From IMG/VR virus record IMGVR_UViG_3300025896_000022: 64,000 nucleotides of DNA. The stretch is one strand, 5' to 3'. A program made the position numbers and the translations under genes. Below the pieces are notes generated by a model. It was not told the DNA's origin. It did no database searches and worked only from the letters and a program-made list of their open reading frames with translations. Below are positions 19,142-52,060 of the stretch, in pieces. The DNA is from a virus. Taxonomy: Duplodnaviria > Heunggongvirae > Uroviricota > Caudoviricetes. Positions within the stretch are counted from its first letter, which is position 1, and each line of letters begins with the position of its first letter.

Positions 19142-19194
19142 TTTACAAATATATTATAAATTTGTAAAAGTTAAACTTTATTTTATATATTTGT
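19142..19194 (+). promoter_or_regulatory. Divergent promoter region. A 10-bp perfect palindrome (TTTTACAAAT-9 nt-ATTTGTAAAA) overlaps a Bacteroidetes-type promoter (-33 TTTG at 19162-19165, -7 TATATTTG at 19187-19194, 21-nt spacing) for the plus-strand operon that starts at 19219.
   Basis: Read directly. The -7 element matches the TAnnTTTG consensus of Bacteroidetes sigma-A promoters. This is the point where transcription orientation switches. Confidence 0.45.
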
Positions 19195-22082: not shown

Positions 22083-22925
22083 ATGGCAATAGTATTTGAA
22101 GCAACAACACATTCATATGTATCTATAGATCCTGAAGATACAACTAAATGGGTATCTGTAACTACATTATTAAGTTCATTAAAACAACCATTTGATTCAT
22201 TAGCAATTGCTACTAAGTGTTCTCAAAATCAAAAGAATACAAATAAGTGGAAAGGCATGTCTGTTGCAAATATACAAGCAGCATGGAAAAAAGAATCTGA
22301 TCGTGCATGTACATTAGGAAACTGGTATCATGACCAACGTGAGCAAGATATTGTTAGTTGTGAAACTATTGTAAGATACGATGAGTCATTACCTGTAATC
22401 AAACCATTACTTGATGGAACAGGTAAAAAACTTGCACCATTACAAAAGTTAATTAATGGTATATATCCAGAACACATGGTTTATTTAAAATCTGCTGGAA
22501 TTTGTGGTCAATCTGATTTAGTTGAAGTTGTAGATAATACAGTTCATATAACTGATTATAAAACTAATAAAAAAATTGATAAAGAATCTTTTAAAAACTG
22601 GGAAGGTGTTTCTAAAAAAATGCTTGGTCCAGTTTCTCATATGGATGATTGTAATTTAAATCATTATAATCTACAACTCAGTATTTATATGTATATTATA
22701 TTGAAACACAATCCTAACTTAAAACCAGGTAAATTAATAATTCATCATATTACATTTGAAGAAGAAGATGAAAAAGATGAATTTGATTATCCGATTACTA
22801 AAATATCTACTGATGGAGATCCTATTATACGAGATATTGAAGTATTTGAGTTACCATATTTAAAAATAGAAGTAAATGATATTTTACAATGGTATAAAAA
22901 TAATCCTAAACTAATTAAAAAATAA
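22083..22925 (+). CDS. PD-(D/E)xK superfamily nuclease (putative, YqaJ/Cas4-like fold)
   Basis: 'GQSDLVEVVDNTVHITDYKTNKK' has the D…E.K arrangement of PD-(D/E)xK nucleases. Size is 280 aa. Confidence 0.4.
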   Translation: MAIVFEATTHSYVSIDPEDTTKWVSVTTLLSSLKQPFDSLAIATKCSQNQKNTNKWKGMSVANIQAAWKKESDRACTLGNWYHDQREQDIVSCETIVRYDESLPVIKPLLDGTGKKLAPLQKLINGIYPEHMVYLKSAGICGQSDLVEVVDNTVHITDYKTNKKIDKESFKNWEGVSKKMLGPVSHMDDCNLNHYNLQLSIYMYIILKHNPNLKPGKLIIHHITFEEEDEKDEFDYPITKISTDGDPIIRDIEVFELPYLKIEVNDILQWYKNNPKLIKK

Positions 22926-23444: not shown

Positions 23445-23634
23445 TATTATGAAACTAAATAGATTATACAACTGGTTATTTCATTATAACCCACATACAG
23501 AAAATTGGAATGCATTTCATAGAGATGACCAATCTGCATACTGGAATAAAACAGAAAAAACACATCCTGTATTTACAGCAAAAGAATTTAATGAGTTAAT
23601 AAAAATATTACACACCTCAAATTTATGTATATAA
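23425..23634 (+). CDS. hypothetical protein
   Basis: 69-aa ORF overlapping both neighbours. Confidence 0.3.
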   Translation: MLTTKCNIMKLNRLYNWLFHYNPHTENWNAFHRDDQSAYWNKTEKTHPVFTAKEFNELIKILHTSNLCI

Positions 23635-26600: not shown

Positions 26601-26888
26601 TATGGTGTAGAAAGAATACCAGACATCATGTTGTTAAAAGAAATGGCAGCATATAGAGATGGATTAAACGTGGATAGGATTATTGCTTTTTGTGCATTAG
26701 TTGCATTTGCAAAAGTGCAAGAATCCAATCGTGGTTACACTAAACGTGTTGAAAGAGAAGATGATAATTTGCAAAAGTCAAATAAAAATGCTAAATTGAG
26801 AGTGAGTCCATTTAGACATATGGGTGGTTCATATTCAATTAATTCATCTATGAGAAAACCTCATAATCCTTTTAAAAACATAAGATAA
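23625..26888 (+). CDS. terL: terminase large subunit (TerL) with an in-frame intein of about 347 aa carrying a LAGLIDADG homing endonuclease
   Basis: It has an ATPase-like N-terminal half and a Walker-B-like 'CTLFFHEEAG'. The nuclease-domain first catalytic motif 'SVDPVAEGK…' is interrupted by an intein. The intein shows a Hint N-block (GRKRIGDIQIGDKVTGSNGEVINV), two LAGLIDADG motifs (LLGLLLGDGGL; LQGLMDTDGSY) and a C-terminal '…VTHN|T' junction. The extein resumes 'TTTSDSLCSIYVY', matching the 'D.sa' part of the terminase nuclease motif. Confidence 0.7.
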   Translation: MYISVPTHDCELDSWSVTDFETRELFVEFLTKMFKVPGTYEFDECSNKFNEQAQLFNKNNKVYCVSPLRSKDYVTYWDDQKAKCRYGVIYKSNGKTWYLTREYYMWLNFLPIYDKEEARFGFAKVRDAQYHMALYEELARHSYKHVVILKKRQIASSYYHGAKMINYFWFEEGSISKMAGSLKDYINEKGTWRFLEEYRNFLNTYTAWYRPCTPDKVLNWEQKIEINQGGKKRDVGLKSVIFGLVLDKDPTNGVGGPCTLFFHEEAGIAPKMNMTMEYLLPAMKSGMIYTGQFIAAGSVGDLAQCEPLREMLMNPDGKDILAVETNLINDKGEIGMCGLFIPEQWSMLPCIDEYGNSQVELALEMILAERIVWKKKLKPDDYQLRISQKPINIAEAFAHRTRSVFPLHLVTQQLRRIEEGEYYKEFLDLNRDETGKVVAKESKKIPISEFPLSSKTEDKEGVLVVWERPHKDPIFGMYYASVDPVAEGKAEHVDNMLYTPKGRKRIGDIQIGDKVTGSNGEVINVIGVYPQGVKKMCKITFSDGHSIKVCEDHLWNVKLNGGTKGYITLSVKDLLNNTKTITYNGTGRNTKKEYTISTYYKDKQNRNKWSIPIVKPISFDFGKILPVNPYLLGLLLGDGGLSQKSIRFSTVDTELINSIEHILEDDLLIKKVKNSNCDYTIITKVGSRNSLTKRLKELGLKGKRSEDKFIPQEYLYALGSCRLSLLQGLMDTDGSYSNHGAEFYSSSKKLAYQVVELVQSLGGIAKIRCKKTTHLDSYIVRVLLPEYLNPFILKRKREIYKPSKVFSKYITNIEYINDAEAICISVDALDNLYVTEHAIVTHNTTTSDSLCSIYVYKTSQEITTHKSDGTIESNIERDKIVAAWCGRFDDLNKTHERLELIIEWYNAWTICENNVSAFIQHMIARRKQKYLVPKNQIMFLKEIQANMNVFQEYGWKNVGTMFKVNIIPYGKQFLEEELDYETKTDGTIVKTTYGVERIPDIMLLKEMAAYRDGLNVDRIIAFCALVAFAKVQESNRGYTKRVEREDDNLQKSNKNAKLRVSPFRHMGGSYSINSSMRKPHNPFKNIR
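25110..26153 (+). mobile_element. intein (Hint domain plus LAGLIDADG endonuclease) within terL. The C-terminal boundary is well defined (His-Asn 26148-26153, then Thr+1). The N-terminal boundary is approximate.
   Basis: See the TerL entry. The residue at the inferred N-terminal junction is not a canonical Cys/Ser, so the exact start may lie a few codons away. Confidence 0.6.
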
Positions 26889-26919: not shown

Positions 26920-29649
26920 ATGCCAAAAATATATAACGCACTCCAGTTAAAAAATGGTGCAAAATCAGATTATAATAGAATGGGTACTATTACCCAACCT
27001 GTACAATTTTTATTAAATAAAGATAAAGATGAACAGTGGGCAGCATGGAATATGGACTGGCATGAAATGCAAGGTTTAAAGATGATTAGACGTAATGCAC
27101 GTAGGTTATTAAAAAATTATAAACTTGCAAATGGTATTATTGATAAATCTGATTACATTATTGAAGAAGATAATGAAATGGCTGATCTTATTGATACATT
27201 AACCAAAGAAGATGAATCAGCATTTGAGTTAAAATTTTTTCCAATTATACCTAATGTTATTAATGTATTAACTGGTGAATTTGCTAAACGTAATGATCGT
27301 ATATCATACAGAGCAGTTGATGATTTTTCATTTAATGAATTATCTGAAATGAAAAGAGGCATGATTGAAGAAAATCTTGTTCATTACGCAGAACAAAAAA
27401 TGCAAGAAACCATTCAACAAATGAGTTTAGACTTGCAAGATGAGCAACAAGCGCAACAAGCTCAGCAAATGATGTCACCAGATAATTTAAAATCACTTCC
27501 TGAAATTGAACAATTCTTTAAAAAAGATTATCGTTCAATGGTAGAACAATGGGCATCTCATCAGCACAATGTTGATACTGAACGTTTTACAATGAAAGAA
27601 CTTGAAAATCTTGCGTTTAGAGATATGCTAATTGCAGATAGAGAGTTTTGGCATTTTAACATGCGTGAAGATGATTATGAAATTGAATTATGGAATCCAC
27701 TATTAACATTTTACCATAAATCACCAGAAGCAAGATATATATCTCAATCTAACTGGGCAGGTAGAATGGATCTTATGACTATTTCTGACATCATTGATAA
27801 GTATGGTTACATGATGAATGAAGAACAAATGGCTGCACTTGAAGTAATATATCCAGTAAAATCTGCAGGATATATGTTACCTGGTGTACAAAATGATGGT
27901 TCTTTTTATGATGCCACTAGATCGCATGATTGGAATGTAGAAGGACCTTCATTAGGAATGCGTCAATTTACTGCACATAGGGATTCAGTTTTAAATACAG
28001 GTGATGATATTATTTATAGAATCTTAAATGAATCAGAAGATTTAATGGATTTTAGTAATTATTCTTTATTACGTGTTACTACAGTATATTGGAAATCACA
28101 AAGAATGGTTGGTCATTTGACCAAATTTACTGAGGATGGTATTCCTGTTGAAATGATTATTGATGAAAATTATAAAGTAACAGATAAACCAGTTTATGAC
28201 AATACTGTTTTAAAAAATAAATCAAAAGATAACTTAGTATTTGGTGAGCACATAGATTGGATATGGATTAATCAAACATGGGGTGGTATTAAGATAGGTC
28301 CAAATAGACCATCATTTTATGGTAATAATGATAGTACTGGATTTTCTCCTATATACTTAAATGTTAGACCAGTAAAGTTTCAATTTAAAGGAGACTTTAC
28401 TTTATATGGTTGTAAGTTACCTGTTGAAGGTTGTGTATTCTCTGATAGAAATACAAAATCAAGAGCACTAGTTGATAAAATGAAACCTTTTCAAGTAGGA
28501 TATAATTTGGTTAATAATCAGATTGCAGACATACTTGTTGATGAATTAGGTACAGTTATTATGCTTGATCAAAATGCATTACCACGTCACTCTATGGGTG
28601 AAGATTGGGGTAAAGATAATTTTGCAAAAGCATATGTTGCCATGAAGAATTTTCAAATGTTGCCTTTAGATACATCTATAACTAATACTGAAAATGCATT
28701 AAACTTTCAACATTATCAAGTACTTAATTTAGAACAGACACAACGTTTATTATCGCGTATACAATTAGCAGGATATTTCAAAAATCAAGCATTTGAAGCA
28801 ATTGGTATTACACCACAAAGATTAGGTGGTGCAACATCGCAAGAAACTGCAACTGGAATTACACAAGCATTAAATCAATCATTCTCACAAACTGAAATGT
28901 ATTTTGTACAACATTCAGAAAACTTAATGCCACGTATTCATCAAATGCGAACAGATCTTGCACAATACTATCATTCTAATCGACCAAGTATTAGATTGCA
29001 GTATATGACCTCTATGGATGAAAAAGTTAATTTTGAAATAAATGGTACTGAATTACTTGCAAGAGAGTTGAATGTGTTCCCTTCTACTAAAGTAAATCAA
29101 CGTGCAATAACAGAACAAATTAGAGGACTAGCTCTTTCTAATAATACTGCTGGTGCATCAATATATGATTTAGGTAATATTATCAAAGCAGATAGTATGG
29201 CAGAAATTACGCATGTATTGAAAGGTATTGAAGAAAAAGTTACTAAAGAAAAACAATCTGAACAACAATCTGCACAACAAGGTATTCAAATGCAACAACA
29301 AGCAGAAACTGAAAGACAAGATAAGAAACTTGCTTTTGAAGCAGAACAAGCTGCGTTGGATAGAGAAAATAACAAAATGGTTGCAGAGATACGTTCTGCT
29401 GGAATGACTGCAATGCAAGATAGAGATGCAAATAATCAAAATGATTATATTGATACGTTAAAATATCTCGATGAAAAAAATGCAAGAAATGAATCTGCAT
29501 CATTGGCAAGAGATAAAGAAATAAATTCACAAGTTAACGAACAAACTAAAGCAAATTTACAACGTCAAGATTTACAAGTACGTGAAAGAATTGCTGATAA
29601 ACAAGTTCAAGTTGCTACTATAAACAAAAATAAATATGATAAAAAATAA
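26920..29649 (+). CDS. portal protein (putative, unusually large at 909 aa)
   Basis: It is the first large gene after terL. It has a Q-rich coiled-coil C-terminus. The call is by position only. Confidence 0.4.
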   Translation: MPKIYNALQLKNGAKSDYNRMGTITQPVQFLLNKDKDEQWAAWNMDWHEMQGLKMIRRNARRLLKNYKLANGIIDKSDYIIEEDNEMADLIDTLTKEDESAFELKFFPIIPNVINVLTGEFAKRNDRISYRAVDDFSFNELSEMKRGMIEENLVHYAEQKMQETIQQMSLDLQDEQQAQQAQQMMSPDNLKSLPEIEQFFKKDYRSMVEQWASHQHNVDTERFTMKELENLAFRDMLIADREFWHFNMREDDYEIELWNPLLTFYHKSPEARYISQSNWAGRMDLMTISDIIDKYGYMMNEEQMAALEVIYPVKSAGYMLPGVQNDGSFYDATRSHDWNVEGPSLGMRQFTAHRDSVLNTGDDIIYRILNESEDLMDFSNYSLLRVTTVYWKSQRMVGHLTKFTEDGIPVEMIIDENYKVTDKPVYDNTVLKNKSKDNLVFGEHIDWIWINQTWGGIKIGPNRPSFYGNNDSTGFSPIYLNVRPVKFQFKGDFTLYGCKLPVEGCVFSDRNTKSRALVDKMKPFQVGYNLVNNQIADILVDELGTVIMLDQNALPRHSMGEDWGKDNFAKAYVAMKNFQMLPLDTSITNTENALNFQHYQVLNLEQTQRLLSRIQLAGYFKNQAFEAIGITPQRLGGATSQETATGITQALNQSFSQTEMYFVQHSENLMPRIHQMRTDLAQYYHSNRPSIRLQYMTSMDEKVNFEINGTELLARELNVFPSTKVNQRAITEQIRGLALSNNTAGASIYDLGNIIKADSMAEITHVLKGIEEKVTKEKQSEQQSAQQGIQMQQQAETERQDKKLAFEAEQAALDRENNKMVAEIRSAGMTAMQDRDANNQNDYIDTLKYLDEKNARNESASLARDKEINSQVNEQTKANLQRQDLQVRERIADKQVQVATINKNKYDKK

Positions 29650-31052: not shown

Positions 31053-32696
31053 ATGAGTACACCTGTATTAAACAATGGTCTCTTCCTACGCGATACAACT
31101 TACAAAGTTAGTTCGCATGTAGATTCTTACCATTTGCAGAATATGCTTAAAACTTCAGAACCTATGGATTTAGGACCTGTTGATTTATGGGCAATGACGC
31201 AAAAGGTAGAAATGCCACTTTATCAAATGGCATCTTTTGGTGGTAAAAACACCATAATGGTAGACAATGCTCGCGGAGAGTACAAATGGCAAACACCAAT
31301 TGTACAAGATCTTCCATACATTGTTGAAGATGTAGAACCAACTCAAACTTCTTTAGGAGCTGATGGTACTAACTTCAAAATCAAAATTAACAGACGTATG
31401 TTTGGTTCTGGTGATATTATCACTTATGACAAATATAAAGGTCTTGAGTTGTATATTGTTCCTAGTGAAGATATTTTACCTTCTGGTGATGGTTTCATTT
31501 ATACTGTACAATTAGTAAACAATAGTAATACTGCAACTTTAGATAAAAAATATCTTAAACCAGGTACTAAATTCTTCAGAAAAGGTTCTGCAAGAGGTGA
31601 GTATGGAGAGAAATTTTCTGATATTGGAGAATTGCAAAATGGTTTCAGAGAGTACTACAACTTTGTTGGAGGTGCTGAAGCTCATGTACATTATTCTATT
31701 TCTTCTCGTGCTGACATGATGATGAAAGGTGGTCTTAATGCAGATGGTACAGTTCCTGTAACTGAAATCTGGAGATCATTTGATAAAAATCTTGATCCAT
31801 CTATCACTAAGATTGATGACATGGTTAAAACAATGGGTAAAGATTGGATTAAGAAATCTTATGACAATGGTAACTTAACTCGTTCATTTGTAACTAATCT
31901 TGAAGCAGCTCACTTATCTAAAGTAGCAAATGACATCGAAACTTATTTGATGTGGGGACAAGGTGGTAGAATTAAACAAGATGGTCCAGATGATATTAGA
32001 TTATCTGTAGGTCTTTGGTCTCAGTTGGATAACTCTTTCAAAAGAATTTACAACAAAAATAGTTTTAACTTGGAATTGTTTAGAAGTGAAATTTTCAACT
32101 TCTACAATGGTAAAGTAGAATTTAAAGGACCAGATCCAAATAGACAAATCATTGTTCAAACTGGTATGGCTGGTATGCGTATGGTAAATGAGGCAATCAA
32201 AAAAGAAGCATTTAGTGGTGCAACTGGTGGTGGTCTAATTGCTAACATGGATCAATCTGGTACTGGTGCTATCTCTGGTAAAAATGCAATGGACTTGAAT
32301 TTTGGATTTGCATTTACATCTTACACAATTCCTTTCTTGGCAAATGTGAAATTTGTATTGAATCCTGCATTTGACAATGTTCATACAAATGATATTGAGA
32401 ATCCAATCATTGATGGTTATCCATTATCTTCTTACAACTTTATTGTGTTTGATATTACTGATAACACTAATGATAACATTTTCTTGTTGAAACTTAAATG
32501 GGATAGTGAGATGAAATGGTTCTATCAAAATGGTACTATGGACTATATGGGTAGATCTCAAGGATTTGCATCTTCTGGAAACTTCAATGGTTATAGAGTA
32601 TTTATGACTCAAACAATGCCAAGTATCTGGGTAAAAGATCCAACTAAAGTGTTAAAAATTGTTATGAGAAACCCTATTACTGGTGGTTCATTCTAA
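31053..32696 (+). CDS. major virion structural protein (candidate major capsid protein)
   Basis: 547 aa, directly after the scaffold-like gene. Three consecutive perfect hairpins in the downstream intergenic region, starting with ACTGAGAGAA-8 nt-TTCTCTCAGT at 32716..32743, indicate an expression boundary. Confidence 0.35.
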   Translation: MSTPVLNNGLFLRDTTYKVSSHVDSYHLQNMLKTSEPMDLGPVDLWAMTQKVEMPLYQMASFGGKNTIMVDNARGEYKWQTPIVQDLPYIVEDVEPTQTSLGADGTNFKIKINRRMFGSGDIITYDKYKGLELYIVPSEDILPSGDGFIYTVQLVNNSNTATLDKKYLKPGTKFFRKGSARGEYGEKFSDIGELQNGFREYYNFVGGAEAHVHYSISSRADMMMKGGLNADGTVPVTEIWRSFDKNLDPSITKIDDMVKTMGKDWIKKSYDNGNLTRSFVTNLEAAHLSKVANDIETYLMWGQGGRIKQDGPDDIRLSVGLWSQLDNSFKRIYNKNSFNLELFRSEIFNFYNGKVEFKGPDPNRQIIVQTGMAGMRMVNEAIKKEAFSGATGGGLIANMDQSGTGAISGKNAMDLNFGFAFTSYTIPFLANVKFVLNPAFDNVHTNDIENPIIDGYPLSSYNFIVFDITDNTNDNIFLLKLKWDSEMKWFYQNGTMDYMGRSQGFASSGNFNGYRVFMTQTMPSIWVKDPTKVLKIVMRNPITGGSF

Positions 32697-34783: not shown

Positions 34784-35227
34784 ATGGATTTTGCAGGAGA
34801 TTTTAAATTAAATAAATTAAAAAGAGCAGGAGTTTCTGGTGGTTCATCACTTGAAAGTCAAACAGCCTCTTGTGTAAGTGAACTAATGAATGCTGCTACT
34901 AGTTTTCATAAGTTACATTTAAAAGTAACTGGTTTAGGTTCATTTGCTGCTCATAAAGCATTGAATGAATTATATGATGCAATGCCTGGACATGCTGATG
35001 ATTTAGCAGAAGGATTCCAAGGTGCTGCAGAAAAATTATTAAGTTATGAAGATTCTGCACCAAGAATTTTGAATTCTGTAGAAGAATCATTATCTTATAT
35101 AAGAGATTTATATCAACAAGTAACTTCATTACAAGCAGTTATGCCTTATAGTGAAATTGTAAATGACCTTGATATGGTCAAAAGTACACTGAATAGTATT
35201 AAATATAAATTACTATTCCTCAAATAA
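34784..35227 (+). CDS. structural-module hypothetical protein
   Basis: 147-aa ORF. Confidence 0.4.
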   Translation: MDFAGDFKLNKLKRAGVSGGSSLESQTASCVSELMNAATSFHKLHLKVTGLGSFAAHKALNELYDAMPGHADDLAEGFQGAAEKLLSYEDSAPRILNSVEESLSYIRDLYQQVTSLQAVMPYSEIVNDLDMVKSTLNSIKYKLLFLK

Positions 35228-41071: not shown

Positions 41072-43294
41072 ATGTTTCCAAATATTCCATGTACTGATTG
41101 TGATCCATGTCCAACACCAGTTGTACCAGTTCCAATACCAGATTTGTCAGAATTAGTTTGTAGTATTTTCTATGATGACACATGCGTGTTTTATTCTGGG
41201 GAAGATATTCCTTGTGCAGGTATACTAAATGGAATGTTTTTAAATGAAGTATTACAAATATTAAGTAATACTTCATGTACTTATTGTGGTGGCATACCAA
41301 AAGTATTACAACCATTAAAATTAACAAAAGATGTTTGTGGTAGAAAAAGTGATAGTCCATCATATGAACTAGTATATGTATATAGACCAACAGGGGTTTT
41401 TTCTGATGTAATAAGTAATAATGATATAATTTATGAATCAGATAGAATAACAAAATATGTAGGTAATAATTTAATTTATGGCGCAAGAACATTTGATGCA
41501 AGTAGACTTACAATAATAAATATTAATGACAATGGTATTGTAACTTTAAATACAACAATTGCTTCTATAACACCAGCACCTGAATCATCTAATAATGAAT
41601 TTAATACTTGTGTTGATGCAACAGTAAATGATTTAATATTATCTATAATTGGAACTGATATAAAAATTTATGATGATCCTTATTTAGGAAATCCATTACC
41701 ATTAACTGATGTATTAACTGAAACATATTATTTTGCAACACAAACTTTGTATGGTTGTGAAAGTACTTTTACTTGGATTTTAGTTAGTGTTGGTACAGTA
41801 TACCAACCTGAAGCAGATTCACCTCAAACATTTTGTACAAATTCAACAGTGGCAAATTTAGTTGCATATGGTGATAATATTAAATGGTATACAGCATCAA
41901 CAGGTGGTACATTATTAGCAAATACAACTCAACTAGTTTCTGGTGTAACATACTATTGTTCTCAAACTACAGGAACTTGTGAAAGTGAAATAAGAACAGC
42001 AGTTCTTGCAACAATTGGAATACCATCAACTCCTATTGCAGTTAATCAAACATTTTGTTCTGTACCAACGCCAACAATTGCAGACTTAGTAGTGACAGGT
42101 ACAACTGGTACAGTAAAATGGTATACAACTGCAATTGGTGGAACAGCATTATCATCTGGAACTAATTTGATTTCAGGAACTACTTATTATGTATCACAAA
42201 CTATAGGTTCTTGTGAAAGTGCTAAAAAATCAATTTCTATTATAGTAACTACAAAAGTAACACCATTATTTACACAAGTTTCTAATGTATGTTCAGGTGT
42301 AACAATGATTCCATTACCAACTACATCAACAAATGGTATTACAGGAACTTGGTCTCCTGCACTAAATAATACAACAAATACACTATACACGTTTACTCCA
42401 ACTACAGGATTGTGTGCCAATACAACTACAATGACAATAGGAGTTGATACAGTTGCTACTCCAACAGTATCTGCACAAACATTTTGTGGTGGTGGAACTG
42501 TAAGTAATCTTGTTGCAACTGGTACTAATTTAAAATGGTATAATGTTGCAACTGGTGGAACTGCTTTATATAGTTCTGTACCTTTAGTAACAGGTACATA
42601 TTATGTATCTCAAACACTTGGAATTTGTGAAAGTGCAAGAGTATCTTGTGCAGTTACTACATCAAATTTTGTTTTTTCATTAAGAAATGCTGAACATACA
42701 ACATATAGTGATGGAACACCAATACCACAAATAACAAATAATACAGAATGGACAACTGACCCTAGTACTGGATTACCTAGAACAACTGGTGCTTGGTGCT
42801 ATTATAATAATGATCCTGCAAATGGTGCTGTTTATGGCAAACTGTACAATTGGTATGCTGTAGCAGGAATATATAATGCAGCATCACTAGCAAACCCAGT
42901 ATTAAGAAAACAATTTGCACCAAATGGTTATCGTGTTCCAACATTTACGGAGGGATATAATTTTATTAATTGTTTAGGTGGAACATCTGTTGCAGGAGGA
43001 AAGATGAAAGAAGCAGGTACAACACATTGGCAAAGTCCTAACACAGACGCTACAAATAGTAGTGGTTTTACTGGCTTACCTGGAGGTTATCGTAATTACA
43101 ATGGTCCATTTTATAATATTAATTTAAATAATTATTATTTTTTTTCTACAGAAAATGAATTACATGATTCAAATGGAGTAGTAATAGAGATTCAGGGTGC
43201 AGTAATGTATTTAGATTATCGTTATTCAGTAGTAAATTTGTCAGGAGCTCGTAAAAGTAATGGAATGTCAATAAGATTAATCGCAGATATTTAA
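41072..43294 (+). CDS. tail fiber protein with an N-terminal Cys motif, about 4 tandem Ig-like repeats and a C-terminal FISUMP (Fibrobacter succinogenes major paralogous, TIGR02145-like) domain
   Basis: Repeats follow the pattern '(V/I)KWY(T/N)..TGGT.L……L.(S)G.TYY.SQT.G.CES.' The C-terminus 'GAWCYYNNDPANGAVYGKLYNWYAV…GYRVPT…GGKMKEAGTTHWQSPNTDATNSSGFTGLPGGYR' matches the FISUMP consensus. Confidence 0.6.
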   Translation: MFPNIPCTDCDPCPTPVVPVPIPDLSELVCSIFYDDTCVFYSGEDIPCAGILNGMFLNEVLQILSNTSCTYCGGIPKVLQPLKLTKDVCGRKSDSPSYELVYVYRPTGVFSDVISNNDIIYESDRITKYVGNNLIYGARTFDASRLTIININDNGIVTLNTTIASITPAPESSNNEFNTCVDATVNDLILSIIGTDIKIYDDPYLGNPLPLTDVLTETYYFATQTLYGCESTFTWILVSVGTVYQPEADSPQTFCTNSTVANLVAYGDNIKWYTASTGGTLLANTTQLVSGVTYYCSQTTGTCESEIRTAVLATIGIPSTPIAVNQTFCSVPTPTIADLVVTGTTGTVKWYTTAIGGTALSSGTNLISGTTYYVSQTIGSCESAKKSISIIVTTKVTPLFTQVSNVCSGVTMIPLPTTSTNGITGTWSPALNNTTNTLYTFTPTTGLCANTTTMTIGVDTVATPTVSAQTFCGGGTVSNLVATGTNLKWYNVATGGTALYSSVPLVTGTYYVSQTLGICESARVSCAVTTSNFVFSLRNAEHTTYSDGTPIPQITNNTEWTTDPSTGLPRTTGAWCYYNNDPANGAVYGKLYNWYAVAGIYNAASLANPVLRKQFAPNGYRVPTFTEGYNFINCLGGTSVAGGKMKEAGTTHWQSPNTDATNSSGFTGLPGGYRNYNGPFYNINLNNYYFFSTENELHDSNGVVIEIQGAVMYLDYRYSVVNLSGARKSNGMSIRLIADI
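42680..43294 (+). repeat. FISUMP-domain coding segment, copy 1. It has a roughly 70-80% nucleotide-similar paralogue at 51520..52060.
   Basis: Aligned by eye: tggtgcttggtgctattataataatgatcctgcaaatgg… against tggagcatggtgctattataataatgattctgcaaataa…. Confidence 0.5.
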
Positions 43295-43335: not shown

Positions 43336-43366
43336 CCCTCGTGTAACAGCGAGGGTTGTTTTTTAT
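43336..43366 (+). terminator. rho-independent terminator CCCTCG-TGTAACAG-CGAGGG-TTGTTTTTTAT
   Basis: Read directly, about 40 nt after the stop of the fiber gene. Confidence 0.65.
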
Positions 43367-43385
43367 AATAAAAAAATAACTACAT

Positions 43386-44678
43386 TTGTATAACTCTAAA
43401 TATTTAATTATGAGATTAATTAGTAAATTGGTCTATCAAGGACTTACAAGAAAAAATTCAAATCAAAAAGAAGCTGATAGATTAAAATTATCTTTAAATG
43501 ATTACATGTCAATTAAAAAAAATACTTTAGATATTATAAAAAATATGACTGAAGATCAAGTAATGGATGATGTATTTTTTTATAACATAGACAAACGTGT
43601 TTTAATACAACAACCCCAAGAATCTAAAGTGACTGAAATACACCAAAATCTTGAAACTGGCACAAGTAAAATTTCAGCAATTTCTTCTACAGAACCTAAG
43701 ACACCAGAAGAAATAATAAAACTATTAGGAATAGATATAACACAATGGAAATTATCACAATTCTGGAACAAAGAACAAAATAATAAATGGTTAGTTTCTG
43801 CATTAATAACAAGAGTTCCATTACAAGAAAAAATACAAATATCATTTCTACAAGAATTAGCGACTTATAAATTACCAATATTTCCAAAACTAGACCCTGC
43901 AATTATTAATTCAGATTCATCTGAAAAAGTTTGTGGGGTTATTTCATTACAAGATTTACATTTTGGTAAAGTAGGTAATGAAAACATGAATGACATTATG
44001 GAAAAAGCAGTGCTATACCTAGTTGGTAAAGCATATCGTAATTATCATATTGAAAAAATTATATTTATTATTGGACCAGATACTTTAAATATGGATACTT
44101 TTGATGGTACTACAACAAAAGGAACTCCTGTTGAAAATTCTGAAGTAGCAACTAAAGCATATGTAAAAGCATTTGATGCTGTATGTAGTGCAATTACAAC
44201 ATTAAAGAATTTTTGTGAAAATCTTGAAGTAGTATTTATTCCAGGTAATCATGATAGGTTATCTTCTTATCATATGATACATGCAGCATCCCAAGTATTT
44301 AGACAACAATATGATATAACTTTTAATGTAGAATATGCTGAACGTAAAGTAATTACTTATGGTAAAAATATGATTGCTGTTGAACATGGTGATGCTTCTT
44401 CTAAAAATAATCCTTTAGTGTATGCTGTTGAGTTTCCTGATCAATGGGGAAAATCAAATCATAGAATGTTATATACAGGGCATTATCATGGTAGAAAAAC
44501 TAAAGAAGTAATTACTGAAAATGAAGAACAAGGATTTGTTACTAGAATCATACCTGCATTAACTTCATCAGATTATTATCATTATCATAATAAATGGACT
44601 GGAAATCAACGTTCTGCTATTATGCACATACATCATGCAGATAAAGGATTAATATCTGAATTTGTATACTCAGTATAA
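43386..44678 (+). CDS. calcineurin-like metallophosphoesterase (MPP superfamily) embedded in the tail module
   Basis: Motifs in order are 'DLHFG', 'IIGPDTLNMD', 'FIPGNHDR', 'VEHGD' and 'GHYHG'. This is the canonical MPP arrangement (D.H…GD…GNH[DE]…H…GH.H). Confidence 0.55.
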   Translation: MYNSKYLIMRLISKLVYQGLTRKNSNQKEADRLKLSLNDYMSIKKNTLDIIKNMTEDQVMDDVFFYNIDKRVLIQQPQESKVTEIHQNLETGTSKISAISSTEPKTPEEIIKLLGIDITQWKLSQFWNKEQNNKWLVSALITRVPLQEKIQISFLQELATYKLPIFPKLDPAIINSDSSEKVCGVISLQDLHFGKVGNENMNDIMEKAVLYLVGKAYRNYHIEKIIFIIGPDTLNMDTFDGTTTKGTPVENSEVATKAYVKAFDAVCSAITTLKNFCENLEVVFIPGNHDRLSSYHMIHAASQVFRQQYDITFNVEYAERKVITYGKNMIAVEHGDASSKNNPLVYAVEFPDQWGKSNHRMLYTGHYHGRKTKEVITENEEQGFVTRIIPALTSSDYYHYHNKWTGNQRSAIMHIHHADKGLISEFVYSV

Positions 44679-44738: not shown

Positions 44739-45314
44739 ATGTCAAACAAACCAGATTTAAATGCACCAAGATTTAGAAAAACAAGTGAAGGTACTCTTAA
44801 TATGGAGTTTATAAAATTGTTAAAACAAAAAGTACCATCAAGTGTAAATTTATCAAATGAACAAATTAAAAATATAATTAAAACGTTCAATGAAAATATT
44901 TGGAAAACTGTTATAGATAAACGCGATGGCGTTGAGTTACCTGAATTAATTGGTCATATGTTTATAGGTACTTGTCCAAAATCAAAAAAGAAAAATATTG
45001 ATTTTAAAGCAAGTGAAAACTATAAACAAACTGTACAACATAGAAATTGGGAAAGTGATCAACATTTGGCAAAAATATTTTTTACAAATTTTGGTAGTAA
45101 ATATAGATTTAAAAATCATGAGTTATGGGCATTTAATGCAACTAGAGATTTTAGTAGAGAAGTTGCAAGAGTATATCCTTTTACTTGGAAAAAATATTTA
45201 CAAATAGATCCAAAAGTTAAAATATCAAATATCTATAAAACAAATAGTTATAGATTAGAAAAAAAAGATACTGAACAAGAACAACTCAAAGATTATGATG
45301 AGTTCGATTTATAA
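44739..45314 (+). CDS. structural-module hypothetical protein
   Basis: 191-aa ORF. Confidence 0.4.
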   Translation: MSNKPDLNAPRFRKTSEGTLNMEFIKLLKQKVPSSVNLSNEQIKNIIKTFNENIWKTVIDKRDGVELPELIGHMFIGTCPKSKKKNIDFKASENYKQTVQHRNWESDQHLAKIFFTNFGSKYRFKNHELWAFNATRDFSREVARVYPFTWKKYLQIDPKVKISNIYKTNSYRLEKKDTEQEQLKDYDEFDL

Positions 45315-45322
45315 ATAATATT

Positions 45323-45994
45323 ATGACAACAATAGGAGAAGTTTTATCAAGAGTACGTAATCAGATAAAAGCAGTTAAACAAGATGCTTTTTTAACTGAT
45401 AGATTTTTGTATTCTATGATTATGAAACATGCAAAAATGCTTGTTCGTAGACAAGATATACAAAATAGAATAATGAAGTTTAATAGTGTATTTCAAGTAT
45501 TAAACTATGTTGAACTAATTGAAGTAGATAAAGCTGAATCTAAATGTCATGGTATTACATCAGGTTGTACGTTTAAGCGTACAAAAGATAAACTACCTAA
45601 CTTAATGGAAGGACACTGGGGACCTATATTTAGAAGTGTATCTTCATTAGATTTGTCAGAAGAAATTTCACCAACTTATTCTATTACTTATGAAAAAATG
45701 GCAAATCAAAAAACATTTAAATATAACAATAAAAAATACTATTGGTATATTGATGGTTATTTATATTTTCCAAATTTAGAATGGGATGCTGTACGCATAG
45801 AAGGAATTTTTGAAGGTGATATTAGTTCATATAATTGCGATGTAACTGATGATTGTTTATATATACAAGATAAAAGTTTTTCAATACCAGAATATTTATA
45901 TGCTGAAATTGAACAAAATGTAGTAAAAGATTTAGGAGCAATGATTAGTGTTCCATCTGATACTCAACAAGATAATAGAAATATAATAAATTAA
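45323..45994 (+). CDS. structural-module hypothetical protein, possibly baseplate
   Basis: 223-aa ORF. Confidence 0.4.
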   Translation: MTTIGEVLSRVRNQIKAVKQDAFLTDRFLYSMIMKHAKMLVRRQDIQNRIMKFNSVFQVLNYVELIEVDKAESKCHGITSGCTFKRTKDKLPNLMEGHWGPIFRSVSSLDLSEEISPTYSITYEKMANQKTFKYNNKKYYWYIDGYLYFPNLEWDAVRIEGIFEGDISSYNCDVTDDCLYIQDKSFSIPEYLYAEIEQNVVKDLGAMISVPSDTQQDNRNIIN

Positions 45995-45998
45995 TACT

Positions 45999-47102
45999 AT
46001 GGCATTAGTTGAACCACAATACAGAACTTTTGATGATCTTATAGACAGTGTCAAAATAGATTTATATACATGGGATCTTGAAGGATTAATTAATCCACAA
46101 CAACTTATTAAAGTTGCAATGCGTGTTAATTATGATTTAGGTTTGCGTATAAATCAATCACGTTCAAAAGCAATAGAAATACATAAAGGCAAAGGTAAAA
46201 TGCCTGATGATTTTTATGTACTTAATTTTGCATTAGTATGCGAAGAAAGACAAGTAGATGAAATACCAACATATAATAAAACTTATACTGAAGGTATTTT
46301 AGAAGGTGTAACTCTTGCTGAAAACTTTTTAGCAGATAAATTTGTTAATCAATCTACAACAATAGTAGATATTACGCAAGGTGCAAATATAATCAATCAT
46401 CAATTACATACACAAAACATTATTGTACAAGCATTTGCAAACGATGGTTCTGTATTAGATTTTGATGTAACAATAATTGATTCTGAAAATATTACAATTG
46501 ATTCATTATCAATGACAACTATACCAAATGTAAAAGTAATCATAATGGGAGCAAAAATTAGTACAATAGGTACTGGTTCTGGTTCTTGTCCTGCATTACT
46601 TGATTGTGCATCTAATGGTACACCGCAAGTACATTATGTTACAAATGGTAGAAGAGTTGATAGTAAAAAATTAATTCCTTTAAGTATGCAAAAATCTAAA
46701 TCAATTACTGATGATTGTTTTAATTTAAATACAAAAAGTCATTATGATGCATTTTTAAGAAATGGATATTTACATGTTAATTTTGATGAAGGTGTTGTTT
46801 ATGTAAATTATCAATCTTTAATGGAAGATGATGATGGTAACTTATTAATACTTGATCATCCTTATTGTAATGAGTATTATGAATATGCAATTAAACAACG
46901 TATTTATGAGAACTTATTTATGAGTGGTGAAACTGTATCAAATCATTTACAGTTAATGGAACAAAAATTACGTGCTGCAAGAACAATTGCTTTATCATTT
47001 GTAAATACTCCAGATTTTGGTGAAATGAAACGTACATGGGAAATGAATAGAAGAGCACAATATCACAATTACTACAATATGTTTAAGAGTAAAGTTTATT
47101 AA
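45999..47102 (+). CDS. structural-module hypothetical protein, possibly baseplate
   Basis: 367 aa. Its stop overlaps the start of the giant gene. Confidence 0.4.
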   Translation: MALVEPQYRTFDDLIDSVKIDLYTWDLEGLINPQQLIKVAMRVNYDLGLRINQSRSKAIEIHKGKGKMPDDFYVLNFALVCEERQVDEIPTYNKTYTEGILEGVTLAENFLADKFVNQSTTIVDITQGANIINHQLHTQNIIVQAFANDGSVLDFDVTIIDSENITIDSLSMTTIPNVKVIIMGAKISTIGTGSGSCPALLDCASNGTPQVHYVTNGRRVDSKKLIPLSMQKSKSITDDCFNLNTKSHYDAFLRNGYLHVNFDEGVVYVNYQSLMEDDDGNLLILDHPYCNEYYEYAIKQRIYENLFMSGETVSNHLQLMEQKLRAARTIALSFVNTPDFGEMKRTWEMNRRAQYHNYYNMFKSKVY

Positions 47103-47104: not shown

Positions 47105-50100
47105 ATGAGTGAAGATAAAAATAATTCAGGTGCTGCACCGCAGTTAATGAATAGTTTTATGAAAGGAATGAATAAAGATAACTCTGATGTTTTTGTTCCT
47201 GAAAGTGTTTGGATAAATGCTATTAATGCTGTAACTAATTCACATAATGGTGAACTTGGTTCAATTGGTAATGAGCAATCAAACTTATACTGTGAAACTT
47301 TTCCTTATCAGGTAATTGGTATATTAAATAAATATAAAACTGAATGGGTAGTATTTTCAACAGATAATACAAGTTCAGAAATTGGTTTATTTGATGAAAG
47401 TACTTGCGCGTATATTTCTTTAGTTAATGATCCTTGTTTAAATTTTAGTACATTTAATTTAATAACTGGTGCAGTTAAAATGAATTATGATTGTACATAT
47501 TCTGCATACTGGCAAGATAATTTGAATCCAGATAGAACAATGAATTTGGATCCTACACGCATACCATATATTTGTACTCCAAGTTCAGATCCAGATGCAT
47601 GTGGTGTTGAAGTATGTAGTGAAAATTTAGATTGTGATAAATTAAGATTACATCCATTAGTAAAACAAGCATGTGTTAAAGTAAGTAAATCTACAGGATC
47701 AGGTCAATTAAATAATGGTACATATCAAGCAGTTATTGCATATTCTGAAAATGGAATAAAATTGACTGATTATAGTATGCCAAGTAATCCACAAGGATTA
47801 TGGGATCATTCTGGTATTGGTGGTTCATTAGACATAACAATAACTGATTTAGATCAAAACTTTGAAGAGTTTCAATTAGTTGTAATTGGTACTGTAAATC
47901 AACAAACAACAGCAAAGATTATTGGATATTATTCTATTAATCAATCACAAATACATTTAGATTTAATTAATGCTTCATTAATAACTGCAGACCTTTCTAC
48001 TATACCATTAAAAAAAGTAGTATATGAAAAAAGTGATAAAATGTTTGATATTGGTGGTTACTTATTACGTAGTGGTGTAACATCTCAACCATTTTTTAAT
48101 TATCAACCATTAGCAAATACTATAAAAGTAAACTGGGTTGCTGTGCAATATCCGTCAGATTACTATTGGAATGGTGGTAATGAAGTTGGATACATGCGTG
48201 ATGAAGTATATTCATTTTTTATTAGATGGGTATATAAAACTGGTGCACGTTCTGCATCATTTCATATTCCTGGAAGAGTTTCTCGTACAGCAGATATGAC
48301 TGACATTGATGTACGAGCAAATGATATTTTAGAATCAACAAGAAATAAATGTTGGCAAGTATACGATACTTCAACAATTACATCAACTTCACATGTAAGA
48401 AGACCTGATGGTGGTATTATTATTGCAAAAGGTGATATGGCATATTGGGAATCAACTGAGTCATATCCAAATAGTAAACCTGAAATATGGGGTGAATTAT
48501 GTAATAAACTAATTAGACATCATAAGATGCCATCTAATGAAACTACTCATATACATGATACAACAGGTGAATTCATAAATATATTAGGTGTTGAGTTTAC
48601 AAATATATCTCAACCAATAGATATACATAATAAACCAATAACTGATATTATTGGATATGAAATATTAAGAGGTTCTCGTGAAGGTAATAGAAGTATATTA
48701 GCAAAAGGTATATTTAATAATATGGTTGAGTATCCTTTAGATGGTGTAAAATCTAAAAAAGGATTATATCAAAACTATCCATATAATGATGTCAGTAGTG
48801 ATCCTTTTATGGAAACACCTGCGTCATTAGTATATAAAAAAGATATATTCTCTTTTCATGCACCTGAAAATAACTTAGTTAAACCATATGTTGGTAATGG
48901 AGGATATGTAAGAATTTATACTGAAGAAATTGGTGAATCAGTTACTACACCAGAACTTGCATACATGCATCCTAAGTTTAAATTTATACATGAAGATGCA
49001 TTTGGAGCTGTTGCTGCTATTGCTGCTGGATATGCATTACTTGAACTACTTGGATCAACTGATACTAAATCAAGTTCTGTAGGTCATTTTACAGCACCGC
49101 TTTCTGGAGAAATAACTTCAACAATAATTCCATGGGTTACAACAGCGGCAGGTGGAAGTAATCTTGGGGAATCAAATGCTGTCGAAAGAATTCCAACATT
49201 AAACTTTGATTCAGAAAGTAGCACAACTAAAAAATCAGGAACTGCGTCAATATATTCAGATTTTTTAATTCATAATGTAAATTCTGATACAAATTCTGCA
49301 ACATCTGGACCAGGTGGTATTGCACAAGGTGTTACTATTGCAGCTACAGCTTTAGAAATATTTACTGCAATAGGTCAAGGAATTATGACTTTTAATAAAG
49401 TATTTGATATATGGTTAAAAATAATATATGATATTATTTCATATAAAGATTATGTTATACAATTAAATAGTCATAGTTTTTATGCATCACATGATCATGT
49501 ACAAAATATAAATGTACCATTTGGAATACAACCTTCTTTTAATAGAACTATAAAATCAAATGCTTCTAAATATATTGGTTCAGGATTACAAGATTTTAGT
49601 AATTCTCACAAAGTTAACAATGTTAATAGAACAAAATTTTTAGCATTACAATTAGATAATGAATTACCATTTACGTTAAATACTGATGAGTCAAGAAATT
49701 TAATTCCAGATACAAATAATGCATTTGTAACATTTAAAGATTCTGGTAAACGTAATGGTTGGACTGTATCTTATTATGGTGCAATTAAATATGATTATCA
49801 AAATCAATATGGACAATTATATGCAATAACACAAATACCTATTAATTCATGTGTTTATGATATTACTGATAATATATCTTTAAAACATAGCTCATCTCAA
49901 ATATTTGGTGGTGATGTTTATATAAATAGATATACTGAAAAAAATCCATATTATTTTTATAACACTTGGTTAACTGATGTTACTAATGGTACAACGTGGA
50001 ATTATCAAAATTATATTAACGGACCACAACCTGCTTATTGGTTAAATTCTGAATTATATGATGCTTCAAAATTTGGCATACATATAAATTGGCATTTAAT

Positions 50101-52060
50101 ACCAACTTTTGATATAAATTCACCTGGAGATTATTATAATTTTCATGGTAAAGAGGCAACTGGAACTCCAAGTACAAGTTTTCAAAATGCATGGATGTAT
50201 TTGTTTAATAATGGTATACGTGATTTTTTTACTGAATCAGAATTAAACCTTGCATTTAGAGACTATGGTGAAAATAGTTGGGAGAAATTTTATGATCCAG
50301 TTGGTGATTCATTTACTGATATATCATTAATGTTTAGAGCAGACTTAATAACAAAACCTACATACTATGAATATGACTTATCACTCAGCGCATCCAAATT
50401 GTACAGTAACTTCTCATCTTGGTCAAATCTCCTTCCAAGGGACTATGATCCTGCCATCTATACAACATGTTTTGAATACTACCCAAGAAGGGTTATCTAT
50501 TCATTACAACAGCAAGAAGGACTTAAAAGAGATAACTGGAGAAACTATTTACAATTTAACTATAGAGACTTTGAAGGAAAAGTAAATACTTTTAAATCAT
50601 TAAATGCACAAGGTTCTTTAATATTATTTGAAGATACTGAACCTATGCAGTTTGTTGGTGTTGATACATTTCAATCTACTGCTGGTGTAAAATATACAAC
50701 TGGAGATGCTGGATTGTTTCAACAAAATATGCAATCTATTGTTAATGCAGATGACTCATTTCAATATGGTACTAGTATTTCTAGTAAATCTGTTATCAAT
50801 ACACCATATGGATTATTTTGGGTATCACAAAATACTGGTAAAATATTTAATTATGCAGGTAGTGGTATTACAGATATATCTATTGGTGGAATGAAGTATT
50901 GGTTTTTACAAAATATACCATCACCATTATTAAAAGTATATCCTGATTTTCCATTATATGATAATGTAGTAGAAGGTATTTCTATTCAAACTGTATTTGA
51001 TTCACAATATGAATTAATATATTTTACTAAAAAAGATTATTTACCTAAACCTGAATTTGCAAATATTAAAGACTGTTTAGTTTTTGTACCTGGTGAAGGA
51101 TTTTTTATTAATGCTTCTATATGTCCAGGATTTAATACAGGAACTACACAAGTAAAAACTTGTAAACCTGGATTTACATATAATCCACAAACTGATTTAT
51201 GTGAGAAAGTTGTTACAACAAATATATGTCCAACTGGTTCCACATATCAAAATGGTTCATGCGTCATAGTTAATGAATATCGCGCAGTATGTTGTGATAC
51301 AGTTGCGCCAACTGTAACTTTAGTACAATCATTTTGTACTGCAGCTACTGTTGCAGATTTAGTTGCAACAGGGATAACAATTAAATGGTATAATGTTGCT
51401 ACAGGTGGTATTCCATTATTAACAACAACTCCGTTAAATACTGGTAATTATTATGCATCACAAACAATTGCTGGTTGTGAAGGACCAAGATCATTAGTTA
51501 ATGTAACTTGTTTTTCATTTATTTCTGCACCAAAAAATTTAGATGTAACAAATTATCGTAATGGTGATGCAATTCCTCAAGTAACTGATCCAACTGCATG
51601 GTTAAATCTAACTACTGGAGCATGGTGCTATTATAATAATGATTCTGCAAATAATACAACTTATGGAAAATTATACAATTGGTATGCTGTTAATGATCCA
51701 AGAGGATTGGCTCCAATTGGATGGCATATTCCAACTGCAACTGAATATAATACATTTTTTGCTTGTTTAGGAGGAAGTGGAATAGCAGGAAGTAAAATGA
51801 AAGAAATAGGTACTAGTCATTGGACATCTCCTAATACAGGTGCAACAAATAGTAGCGGTTTTACTGGTTTACCTGGTGGGTATCGTACTAGTTATAGTTT
51901 ATTTTACAATATTAATACTGATGGTAGTTGGTGGGGTTCATCAGAAACTAATACAACAAGTGCATGGAATTTTTTAATGAATTATAATCAAACATACGCA
52001 CTAAGTTCTGCTAGTGATAAAAATGCAGGTTTATCTGTTCGTTTGTTTAAAGATGTTTAA
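47105..52060 (+). CDS. giant tail fiber or baseplate-associated adhesin of 1651 aa, with a C-terminal Ig-like repeat and FISUMP domain
   Basis: The C-terminus '…IKWYNVATGGIPLLTTTPLNTGNYYASQTIAGCEGPRS…GAWCYYNNDSANNTTYGKLYNWYAVNDPRGLAPIGWHIPTATEY…GSKMKEIGTSHWTSPNTGATNSSGFTGLPGGYR' is paralogous to the C-terminus of ORF 41072. Confidence 0.55.
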   Translation: MSEDKNNSGAAPQLMNSFMKGMNKDNSDVFVPESVWINAINAVTNSHNGELGSIGNEQSNLYCETFPYQVIGILNKYKTEWVVFSTDNTSSEIGLFDESTCAYISLVNDPCLNFSTFNLITGAVKMNYDCTYSAYWQDNLNPDRTMNLDPTRIPYICTPSSDPDACGVEVCSENLDCDKLRLHPLVKQACVKVSKSTGSGQLNNGTYQAVIAYSENGIKLTDYSMPSNPQGLWDHSGIGGSLDITITDLDQNFEEFQLVVIGTVNQQTTAKIIGYYSINQSQIHLDLINASLITADLSTIPLKKVVYEKSDKMFDIGGYLLRSGVTSQPFFNYQPLANTIKVNWVAVQYPSDYYWNGGNEVGYMRDEVYSFFIRWVYKTGARSASFHIPGRVSRTADMTDIDVRANDILESTRNKCWQVYDTSTITSTSHVRRPDGGIIIAKGDMAYWESTESYPNSKPEIWGELCNKLIRHHKMPSNETTHIHDTTGEFINILGVEFTNISQPIDIHNKPITDIIGYEILRGSREGNRSILAKGIFNNMVEYPLDGVKSKKGLYQNYPYNDVSSDPFMETPASLVYKKDIFSFHAPENNLVKPYVGNGGYVRIYTEEIGESVTTPELAYMHPKFKFIHEDAFGAVAAIAAGYALLELLGSTDTKSSSVGHFTAPLSGEITSTIIPWVTTAAGGSNLGESNAVERIPTLNFDSESSTTKKSGTASIYSDFLIHNVNSDTNSATSGPGGIAQGVTIAATALEIFTAIGQGIMTFNKVFDIWLKIIYDIISYKDYVIQLNSHSFYASHDHVQNINVPFGIQPSFNRTIKSNASKYIGSGLQDFSNSHKVNNVNRTKFLALQLDNELPFTLNTDESRNLIPDTNNAFVTFKDSGKRNGWTVSYYGAIKYDYQNQYGQLYAITQIPINSCVYDITDNISLKHSSSQIFGGDVYINRYTEKNPYYFYNTWLTDVTNGTTWNYQNYINGPQPAYWLNSELYDASKFGIHINWHLIPTFDINSPGDYYNFHGKEATGTPSTSFQNAWMYLFNNGIRDFFTESELNLAFRDYGENSWEKFYDPVGDSFTDISLMFRADLITKPTYYEYDLSLSASKLYSNFSSWSNLLPRDYDPAIYTTCFEYYPRRVIYSLQQQEGLKRDNWRNYLQFNYRDFEGKVNTFKSLNAQGSLILFEDTEPMQFVGVDTFQSTAGVKYTTGDAGLFQQNMQSIVNADDSFQYGTSISSKSVINTPYGLFWVSQNTGKIFNYAGSGITDISIGGMKYWFLQNIPSPLLKVYPDFPLYDNVVEGISIQTVFDSQYELIYFTKKDYLPKPEFANIKDCLVFVPGEGFFINASICPGFNTGTTQVKTCKPGFTYNPQTDLCEKVVTTNICPTGSTYQNGSCVIVNEYRAVCCDTVAPTVTLVQSFCTAATVADLVATGITIKWYNVATGGIPLLTTTPLNTGNYYASQTIAGCEGPRSLVNVTCFSFISAPKNLDVTNYRNGDAIPQVTDPTAWLNLTTGAWCYYNNDSANNTTYGKLYNWYAVNDPRGLAPIGWHIPTATEYNTFFACLGGSGIAGSKMKEIGTSHWTSPNTGATNSSGFTGLPGGYRTSYSLFYNINTDGSWWGSSETNTTSAWNFLMNYNQTYALSSASDKNAGLSVRLFKDV
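51520..52060 (+). repeat. FISUMP-domain coding segment, copy 2
   Basis: see 42680..43294. Confidence 0.5.

Follow-up and report, generated by a model that had tools for sequence, protein, structure and literature searches.

A metallophosphoesterase with a predicted helix-turn-helix domain encoded ahead of the tail-barrel genes of an uncultured crAss-like phage: a possible stand-alone DNA nuclease

What does a calcineurin-like metallophosphoesterase (MPP) do when it is encoded among the tail genes of a phage? The question is raised by the Caudoviricetes record IMGVR_UViG_3300025896_000022, of which we analysed a stretch of 64,000 nucleotides (the window). An open reading frame (ORF) at 43386-44678 on its plus strand follows a fibre gene, and the original prediction had taken this position to suggest either a virion enzyme acting on polysaccharide or teichoic acid, or a nucleotide-signalling enzyme. 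We tentatively favour another reading, to which we give a little less than an even chance, namely that the protein is a non-virion, stand-alone nuclease, guided by a helix-turn-helix (HTH) domain, that would act on DNA as replication gives way to packaging.

The translation of the ORF contains the five predicted signature motifs in order (DLHFG, GPDTLNMD, GNHDR, VEHGD, GHYHG). The ORF and its motifs were thus called correctly, but its start was not. The coding region is almost certainly 43410-44678 (+), 422 amino acids (aa), with the ATG at 43410 as the true start instead of the TTG at 43386, because most of the listed homologues have 422 aa and the alignment begins at that methionine. The TTG forms the final three bases of a conserved box, TACATTTG, which is described below.

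Numbered from this ATG, the protein is predicted to have three parts. Residues 1-45 (43410-43544, +) form a three-helix HTH of the sigma-70 region-4 or LuxR-GerE type, and residues 74-152 (43629-43865, +) a conserved small alpha/beta domain with the invariant residues D109, W113, Q117, W119, N120, K121 and W127, the structural matches of which were all weak and ferredoxin-like. Residues 173-422 plus the stop codon (43926-44678, +) constitute the binuclear MPP catalytic domain, in which the motifs DLHFG, GPDTLNMD, GNHDR, EHGD and GHYHG are accompanied by a family-specific TTTKGT loop. This domain has the beta-sandwich MPP fold, and the chain ends about 60 residues beyond GHYHG, those residues being the last strands of the core. 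The AlphaFold model of the protein had a mean pLDDT of 77, and a separate model of residues 1-175 had a pLDDT of 79. In 29 close homologues, and also in 96 diverse family representatives at 22-49% identity, the metal ligands D182, H184, D224, N280, H281, H326 and H360 never vary. Judged from these residues, the two-metal phosphoesterase site is intact and catalytically competent, and the protein is very probably an active phosphodiesterase.

In order to place the protein among known MPPs, we compared it with several collections. The match to PHROG 704 ("DNA repair exonuclease"; E=1.3e-49, 170 bits) was full-length and paired profile positions 21-386 of 390 with residues 25-430 of the 430-aa ORF. 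In Pfam, Metallophos_2 scored 20.7 bits and missed the gathering score, the cut-off being 27; a Metallophos match at E<=0.01 was obtained for 30 of the 96 family members scanned, and two family members matched DNA_pol_E_B. NCBIfam was uninformative, with PdeM at E=0.056. When 1.84 billion cluster representatives (50% identity) were searched with a profile, 4,687 members were returned at E<=1e-3, 522 of them at E<=1e-30; most members have 380-460 aa, and their alignment runs from about residue 70 to the C-terminus. Family members carry diverse types of HTH. The predicted MPP is thus genuine, well in excess of chance. By sequence, we class the family as a divergent subfamily of the calcineurin-like metallophosphoesterases. 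With the single protein, a sequence search of the PDB found no match at E<=1. When the family profile was run against all PDB sequences, the only MPPs recovered were nucleases, all of them weakly: Thermotoga maritima Mre11/SbcD (E=0.003), Mre11 (E=0.014), Pyrococcus furiosus Mre11 (E=0.45) and the bacterial "Nuclease MPE" (E=1.3). Among the viral structures of BFVD, the full-length matches were uncharacterised phage proteins of ~400-480 aa and the next tier consisted of Mre11/SbcD/gp47-like proteins; some of the BFVD homologues had been automatically named "DNA polymerase II small subunit". The GenBank note of the phage T1 homologue records a 99% HHpred match to SbcD 4LTY.

We consider it rather probable that the substrate is a nucleic acid. 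That it would be DNA we infer because the protein has an HTH, its relatives in the profile search are nucleases only, and a stand-alone MPE of a mycobacteriophage has demonstrated DNase activity (PMC12287305).

The signature motifs and the weak best profile matches could also point to a canonical Mre11/SbcD recombination nuclease, with its Rad50/SbcC ATPase encoded elsewhere. Two sets of observations argue against this. First, the protein has neither a capping domain nor C-terminal Rad50-binding helices. Second, the partner was not found. Among the window ORFs scanned there is no gene resembling Rad50, SbcC, SMC or AAA_23, and none resembling Rad50, SbcC or SMC was detected by Pfam and PHROG scans (ORFs of at least ~145 aa) in the ~40 kb that lie beyond the window in close relatives. 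The contigs of these relatives (L099, L101, L104 and L107) were followed past the right end of the window until they rejoined its left part, the junction being anchored by one tblastx match only (window 3457-3624 to L107 19177-19344), and the ORFs met there were of 876, 1587, ~4014, 1970 (PD-(D/E)XK), 641, 424 and 493 aa (DUF4874/DUF4832), together with a holin and small genes. No SbcC-like gene adjoins the MPP gene in more than 80 syntenic loci, where a fibre gene and an IHF-like gene flank it, and no SbcC/Rad50 is annotated in the whole 40-kb genome of the Lactobacillus phage Lrm1, which carries a family member. The original prediction had likewise argued from a missing Rad50/SbcC partner against an Mre11/SbcD role, and had named as the finding that would overturn it a clear Mre11/SbcD assignment with a Rad50-like gene nearby outside the window; the relatives' sequence beyond the window yielded no such combination. 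We therefore regard the canonical Mre11/SbcD reading as largely refuted, its residual probability being minimal.

A virion-associated phosphodiesterase that clears capsule or teichoic-acid-like polymers, exposing the receptor, would fit a gene placed between fibre and tail-barrel genes, and according to a review some tail spikes of Crassvirales have annotated phosphatase domains (PMC10136315). The protein itself gives this idea little room, since a DNA-binding HTH, and no fibre or hub anchor, makes up its N-terminus. A Pfam scan for domains disclosed no fibre-anchor, carbohydrate-binding or beta-helix module, and no secretion feature was found. Proteins of identical architecture are encoded at non-structural positions in siphophages. 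Conservation also argues against it. In the 80 IMG/VR loci, the order MPP, 191-aa protein, ring R2, ring R1, muzzle and next gene is kept wherever the locus is long enough, and syntenic loci extend down to 41% MPP identity. Across them the MPP is 41-91% conserved, while the upstream fibre genes are 26-60% identical or undetectable; in the closest metagenomic relative the MPP (81%), the 191-aa protein (80%), R2 (87%) and R1 (90%) contrast with upstream fibre genes at 44-57%. This is, as far as sequence comparison can tell, the pattern of a core enzyme and not of a host-range determinant. A terminator and a putative promoter, moreover, set the gene apart from the fibre genes. A role in clearing polymers is very unlikely in our estimation, and the inference from position to a virion enzyme is not supported: the structural block of crAss-like phages regularly hosts non-structural enzymes, and position alone therefore says little on packaging into the virion.

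The last fibre-like gene (41072-43294, +) encodes Ig_7 and Fib_succ_major domains and is followed, as predicted, by an intrinsic-terminator-like hairpin (CCCTCG-loop-CGAGGG plus a T-run; 43336-43364, +), located by a terminator scan, which placed it at 43336-43355, and by inspection of the sequence; it closes the upstream fibre gene unit. The same GC-rich hairpin with its T-run also precedes the MPP gene in close relatives. Between hairpin and gene lies the box TACATTTG (43381-43388, +), 22 nt 5' of the ATG. It fits TAnnTTTG, the -7 promoter consensus of Bacteroidota, which is the basis for reading it as the putative promoter of an MPP-IHF-R2-R1-muzzle unit. Most of the close relatives checked have a TAnnTTTG box 15-48 nt 5' of the predicted MPP start. 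In the window, TAnnTTTG(TA) boxes on the plus strand occur at 19157, 19186, 29681, 43381 and 59263, and stand 22-79 nt 5' of only four plus-strand ORF starts (19219, 29767, 43410 and 59325). Given the terminator and the box, the MPP gene would therefore begin its own transcription unit, and the distribution of the boxes suggests that this is one of about four such units in the morphogenesis region, read by the host polymerase. Six distant relatives do not have the TAnnTTTG box 5' of MPP. Four of these (L058, L062, L063 and L076) share in its place another conserved motif, (T/C)TTTATA(C/T)ACCATATAC(C/T)AA, and the other two (L084 and L088) a shorter related form, ACCGTATACCAATCC; the site is ~20-45 nt 5' of the MPP start, at locus position ~9955-9980, and the motif may be a lineage-specific promoter.

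The genes 3' of MPP had been described as baseplate-like. They encode instead a 191-aa crAss HU/IHF-like DNA-binding protein (44739-45314, +), the tail-barrel rings R2 (45323-45994, +; Pfam CrAss_Ring_2, E=2e-24) and R1 (45999-47102, +; CrAss_Ring_1, E=1.3e-9) and a muzzle-like protein of 1651 aa (47105-52060, +), with more large proteins 3' of it. The assignment of the 191-aa protein comes from BLASTP and hhalign. By BLASTP it matches the 169-aa protein encoded between R2 and R1 in Leptolyngbya phage Lbo-JY46 (E=2e-6), and by hhalign its profile matches, over 136 columns, a crAss HU/IHF-like profile built from crAss001 gp42, cr116_1 gp038, IAS gp064, FpV4 gp26 and phi17:2 gp045 (probability 90.7%, E=1.3e-6). 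The MPP is therefore paired with a DNA-binding protein. We had also suspected, by position, that the 191-aa protein was the tail-hub protein THA of crAss001 (gp38; PMC10172136); BLASTP to crAss001 gp38 and cr116_1 gp035 found nothing, and this candidate was dropped.

The slot directly 5' of R2 was then compared in other crAss-like phages. In Lbo-JY46, a cultured phage of 125 kb, an MPP homologue (XAI97391.1; E=6e-20, 89% coverage) stands directly 5' of R2, followed by an IHF-like gene, R1 and the muzzle. All the proteins of this stretch (PP438436.1 82844-91283, locus L093), namely R2, R1, the IHF-like protein, a muzzle-like protein of 1654 aa and the MPP, are annotated as hypothetical. Since Lbo-JY46 is a cyanobacterial phage, a tail module of crAss-like type also occurs where the host is outside Bacteroidota. 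In Flavobacterium phage FpV4 the same slot holds a PD-(D/E)XK nuclease. In crAss001, cr116_1 and IAS virus the order is THA-THB-R2-IHF, then a homing endonuclease, lysozyme or SGNH hydrolase gene, then R1, and in Cellulophaga phage phi17:2 it is fibre-R2-(IHF-like)-R1, the IHF-like gene being the only one of the stretch without a virion structural annotation. The window has its own PD-(D/E)XK nuclease gene (22083-22925, +), two genes 5' of that for the large terminase subunit (TerL) and homologous to FpV4 gp24 (L094 6277-6987; E=9e-13). It adjoins a candidate small terminase gene and TerL, unlike the FpV4 copy 5' of R2. Nuclease genes thus seem, from these gene orders, to move between two fixed places of the crAss structural block, with an apparent interchange of MPP and PD-(D/E)XK nuclease at the slot 5' of R2. 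PD-(D/E)XK nuclease and IHF inside the structural block have been described as crAss signatures (PMC7886860).

Family members in other phages have different neighbours. In Lrm1 a DUF1492 gene is followed by the MPP gene, an HNH gene, two small genes and that of the small terminase subunit (TerS); in Bacillus phage vB_BhaS-171 the order is MPP-HNH-HNH-TerS-TerL-portal. The T1 gene is the last of a helicase-resolvase-Dam operon, with an HNH gene after it, that of Elizabethkingia phage TCUEAP1 comes after primase and helicase genes, and those of the Flavobacterium siphophage vB_FspS_lillamy9-1 and of S-CBS2 are at the left end of the genome. From the gene order in these six phages, the recurrent location of the family is the boundary between replication/recombination and packaging genes.

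The nuclease that we favour would work as follows. The MPP gene would open an operon that it shares with the genes of the HU/IHF-like protein, the rings of the tail barrel and the muzzle, and would have a host-type promoter of its own. The HTH would deliver the active site to DNA, on which the protein would act as a phosphodiesterase or nuclease without a Rad50/SbcC ATPase. It would act late, before packaging or in the course of it: once phage DNA has been replicated, its ends, hairpins or branches would be trimmed or opened, and this processing would let concatemers be packaged. We infer late processing because of the HNH and terminase neighbours in siphophages, the IHF-like neighbour here and the PD-(D/E)XK nuclease in the FpV4 slot; such a specific role in DNA maturation is possible, though on balance doubtful. 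Several points weigh against the reading as a whole. Our literature search found no biochemical or genetic study of any PHROG 704 member, the maturation role is argued from gene neighbourhood only, and the HTH could serve regulation instead of substrate targeting. The position at the head of a tail-barrel and muzzle operon, in addition, fits a packaged protein. If so, the HTH-MPP could be packaged with the operon's cargo proteins and ejected as a pre-made, DNA-targeted nuclease that attacks host DNA or defence loci in the first seconds, before phage expression; in a gentler variant it would serve the crAss packaging machine, together with the IHF-like protein, as a dedicated factor for processing ends or branches, in place of the HNH accessory nucleases of cos phages. 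We rate this pair of ideas as improbable.

A nuclease directed at host DNA or host defences, like the MPE of cluster-A mycobacteriophages, is a related possibility. Such an enzyme would supply nucleotides or silence defence genes, possibly as ejected cargo. The precedent is A10ZJ24 gp48, a stand-alone phage MPP with DNA-degrading activity both in vitro and in vivo, without which host defences are not overcome (PMC12287305). The putative host-type promoter of the window MPP would suit this role, and so would its place at the head of an operon of muzzle and large proteins, the crAss001 counterparts of which are cargo proteins (PMC10172136). However, the mycobacteriophage enzyme is the product of an early gene, and the residues mutated in it (D10, D41 and H175) place its MPP domain at the N-terminus, with no room for an HTH or a middle domain. 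The window gene, in contrast, is embedded in a morphogenesis block beside IHF-like and ring genes, and an HTH that reads sequence would be odd in an enzyme for bulk degradation. Mycobacterium, further, is outside the ten commonest host genera of the phages matched by tblastn. We consider this alternative unlikely, if less so than ejection with the cargo as set out above.

Finally, the protein could be a second-messenger phosphodiesterase, a 2',3'-cyclic-phosphate end-healing enzyme or a protein phosphatase, directed against host signalling immunity or RNA damage. Its fold is as close to MJ0936, YfcE, Rv0805 and GpdQ as it is to nucleases, and in some Klebsiella phages the gene of a distant homologue has one for a polynucleotide kinase or HAD hydrolase as its neighbour. 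In an enzyme of this kind, one would not expect a conserved HTH and middle domain, and the profile searches returned no solved MPPs other than nucleases. The original inference from position to a nucleotide-signalling enzyme is not supported either. No relation to anti-CBASS, anti-Pycsar or anti-Thoeris families was detected, the PADLOC library being outside the search. The chances of a small-molecule or phosphatase role appear slim to us.

Part of this picture is already known: the protein belongs to a large catalogued phage family, and an MPP is listed among crAss-like genes. Yutin et al. (2021) gave "MPP (metallophosphatase)" among the recurrent genes of crAss-like phages (PMC7886860), and MPP is in the gene key of the genome maps of Antarctic marine crassviruses (PMC11502894). 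What is new is the predicted HTH-alpha/beta-MPP architecture; the apparently fixed MPP-IHF-R2-R1 block, with a putative promoter of its own, in an uncultured environmental crAss-like clade; and the recurrence of the MPP in a cyanobacterial crAss-like phage, together with its apparent interchange with PD-(D/E)XK. The combination of HTH and MPP is very widespread among tailed phages, T1-like coliphages and dairy Lactobacillus phages being examples, and in the uncultured crAss-like lineage the MPP is as conserved as the tail-barrel proteins and always paired with the IHF-like protein. It is also one of few recognisable DNA-handling enzymes there: we recognised no DNA polymerase, primase or replicative helicase among the window ORFs scanned or, with Pfam or PHROGs and ORFs of at least ~145 aa, in the ~40 kb of the relatives. 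This lack of recognisable replication genes is unusual for a crAss-like genome of ~105 kb, and such genes are either too divergent to detect or absent. The substrate of the MPP, once found, would fill a recurring blank at the replication-packaging boundary of phage genomes and would help explain DNA maturation in crAss-like phages. As a caution, an enzyme gene among crAss-like tail genes is no evidence that the enzyme is located in the virion.

The window as a whole has ~29% GC and comes from an uncultured, low-GC crAss-like podophage. A megablast of 24 kb found nothing in the GenBank phage collection, which thus includes no close cultured relative; for the MPP, the highest protein identity there was 27% (tblastn). 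Many relatives were present in metagenomes, on contigs of 100-135 kb. The crAss-type morphogenesis block occupies the plus strand from ~19 kb onward. In addition to the genes mentioned above, it comprises a 171-aa ORF directly 5' of TerL (the candidate small terminase, by position only), TerL (23625-26888, +; 1087 aa), the portal (26920-29649, +), the major capsid protein (31053-32696, +) and a DUF5856/IHF-like protein (34784-35227, +). Residues 59-489 of TerL match the TerL profile, and residues ~482-850 give intein-like extra matches to PHROGs for primase, DnaC-like helicase loader, ribonucleotide reductase and other TerL families, a pattern typical of an intein or homing-endonuclease insertion. 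Ig_7 (CHU_C-associated) followed by Fib_succ_major is the C-terminal module of both the 41072-43294 fibre and the 1651-aa muzzle-like protein, which suggests a shared receptor-binding cassette on two different tail components. Past the right end of the window, the 4014-aa ORF (L101 8357-20401; no Pfam or PHROG match) and the 1970-aa ORF (L104 10997-16909; N-terminal PD-(D/E)XK) are probably crAss-type giant transcription or cargo proteins. On the minus strand, genes for a MoxR-like AAA+ ATPase (PHROG 249) and a vWA/CobT-like protein (PHROGs 1576 and 17276) are near each other, at 5519-7372 and 8506-9780, in a block that is probably early; the MoxR-vWA pairing is known from cellular chaperone systems. 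A 262-aa GIY-YIG-type homing endonuclease with an HNH/HTH-like C-terminal region is encoded among small minus-strand genes (1761-2549, -).

How the window MPP compares with known systems can be summarised as follows. The Yutin et al. maps draw the MPP of the gut delta group in the replication block, beside PDDEXK_b and an AAA ATPase (PMC7886860), whereas that of the window is in the structural block, the two being compared by name and map position alone. To the phosphodiesterase domains of PolD DP1 and the eukaryotic polymerase B-subunits the likeness is no stronger than to other MPPs, and a polymerase partner was not recognised in the window or in the relatives' remaining genome. Mre11, SbcD and T4 gp47 share the binuclear core and the five motifs, but the window MPP is without their capping domain, Rad50/SbcC-binding helix-loop-helix and partner ATPase gene, and its N-terminal HTH and alpha/beta domain have no counterpart in Mre11/SbcD. 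A10ZJ24 gp48 resembles it in standing alone and in carrying all five motifs, and provides a case in which phosphodiesterase and DNase activity were shown with no partner ATPase (PMC12287305); it is not detectably of the same subfamily, and its role there is in host DNA damage and counter-defence. Counterparts in the same family are PHROG 704 members such as T1 CPTT1_064, Lrm1 gp50, vB_BhaS-171 gp01 and Synechococcus phage S-CBS2 gp003, which have the same order of HTH, middle domain and MPP, a similar length (~380-450 aa) and, likewise, no Rad50 partner. The siphophage members are 22-29% identical to the window MPP, and their genes lie beside replication/recombination or HNH-terminase genes, whereas the window MPP heads what appears to be the tail-barrel operon of a crAss-like podophage.

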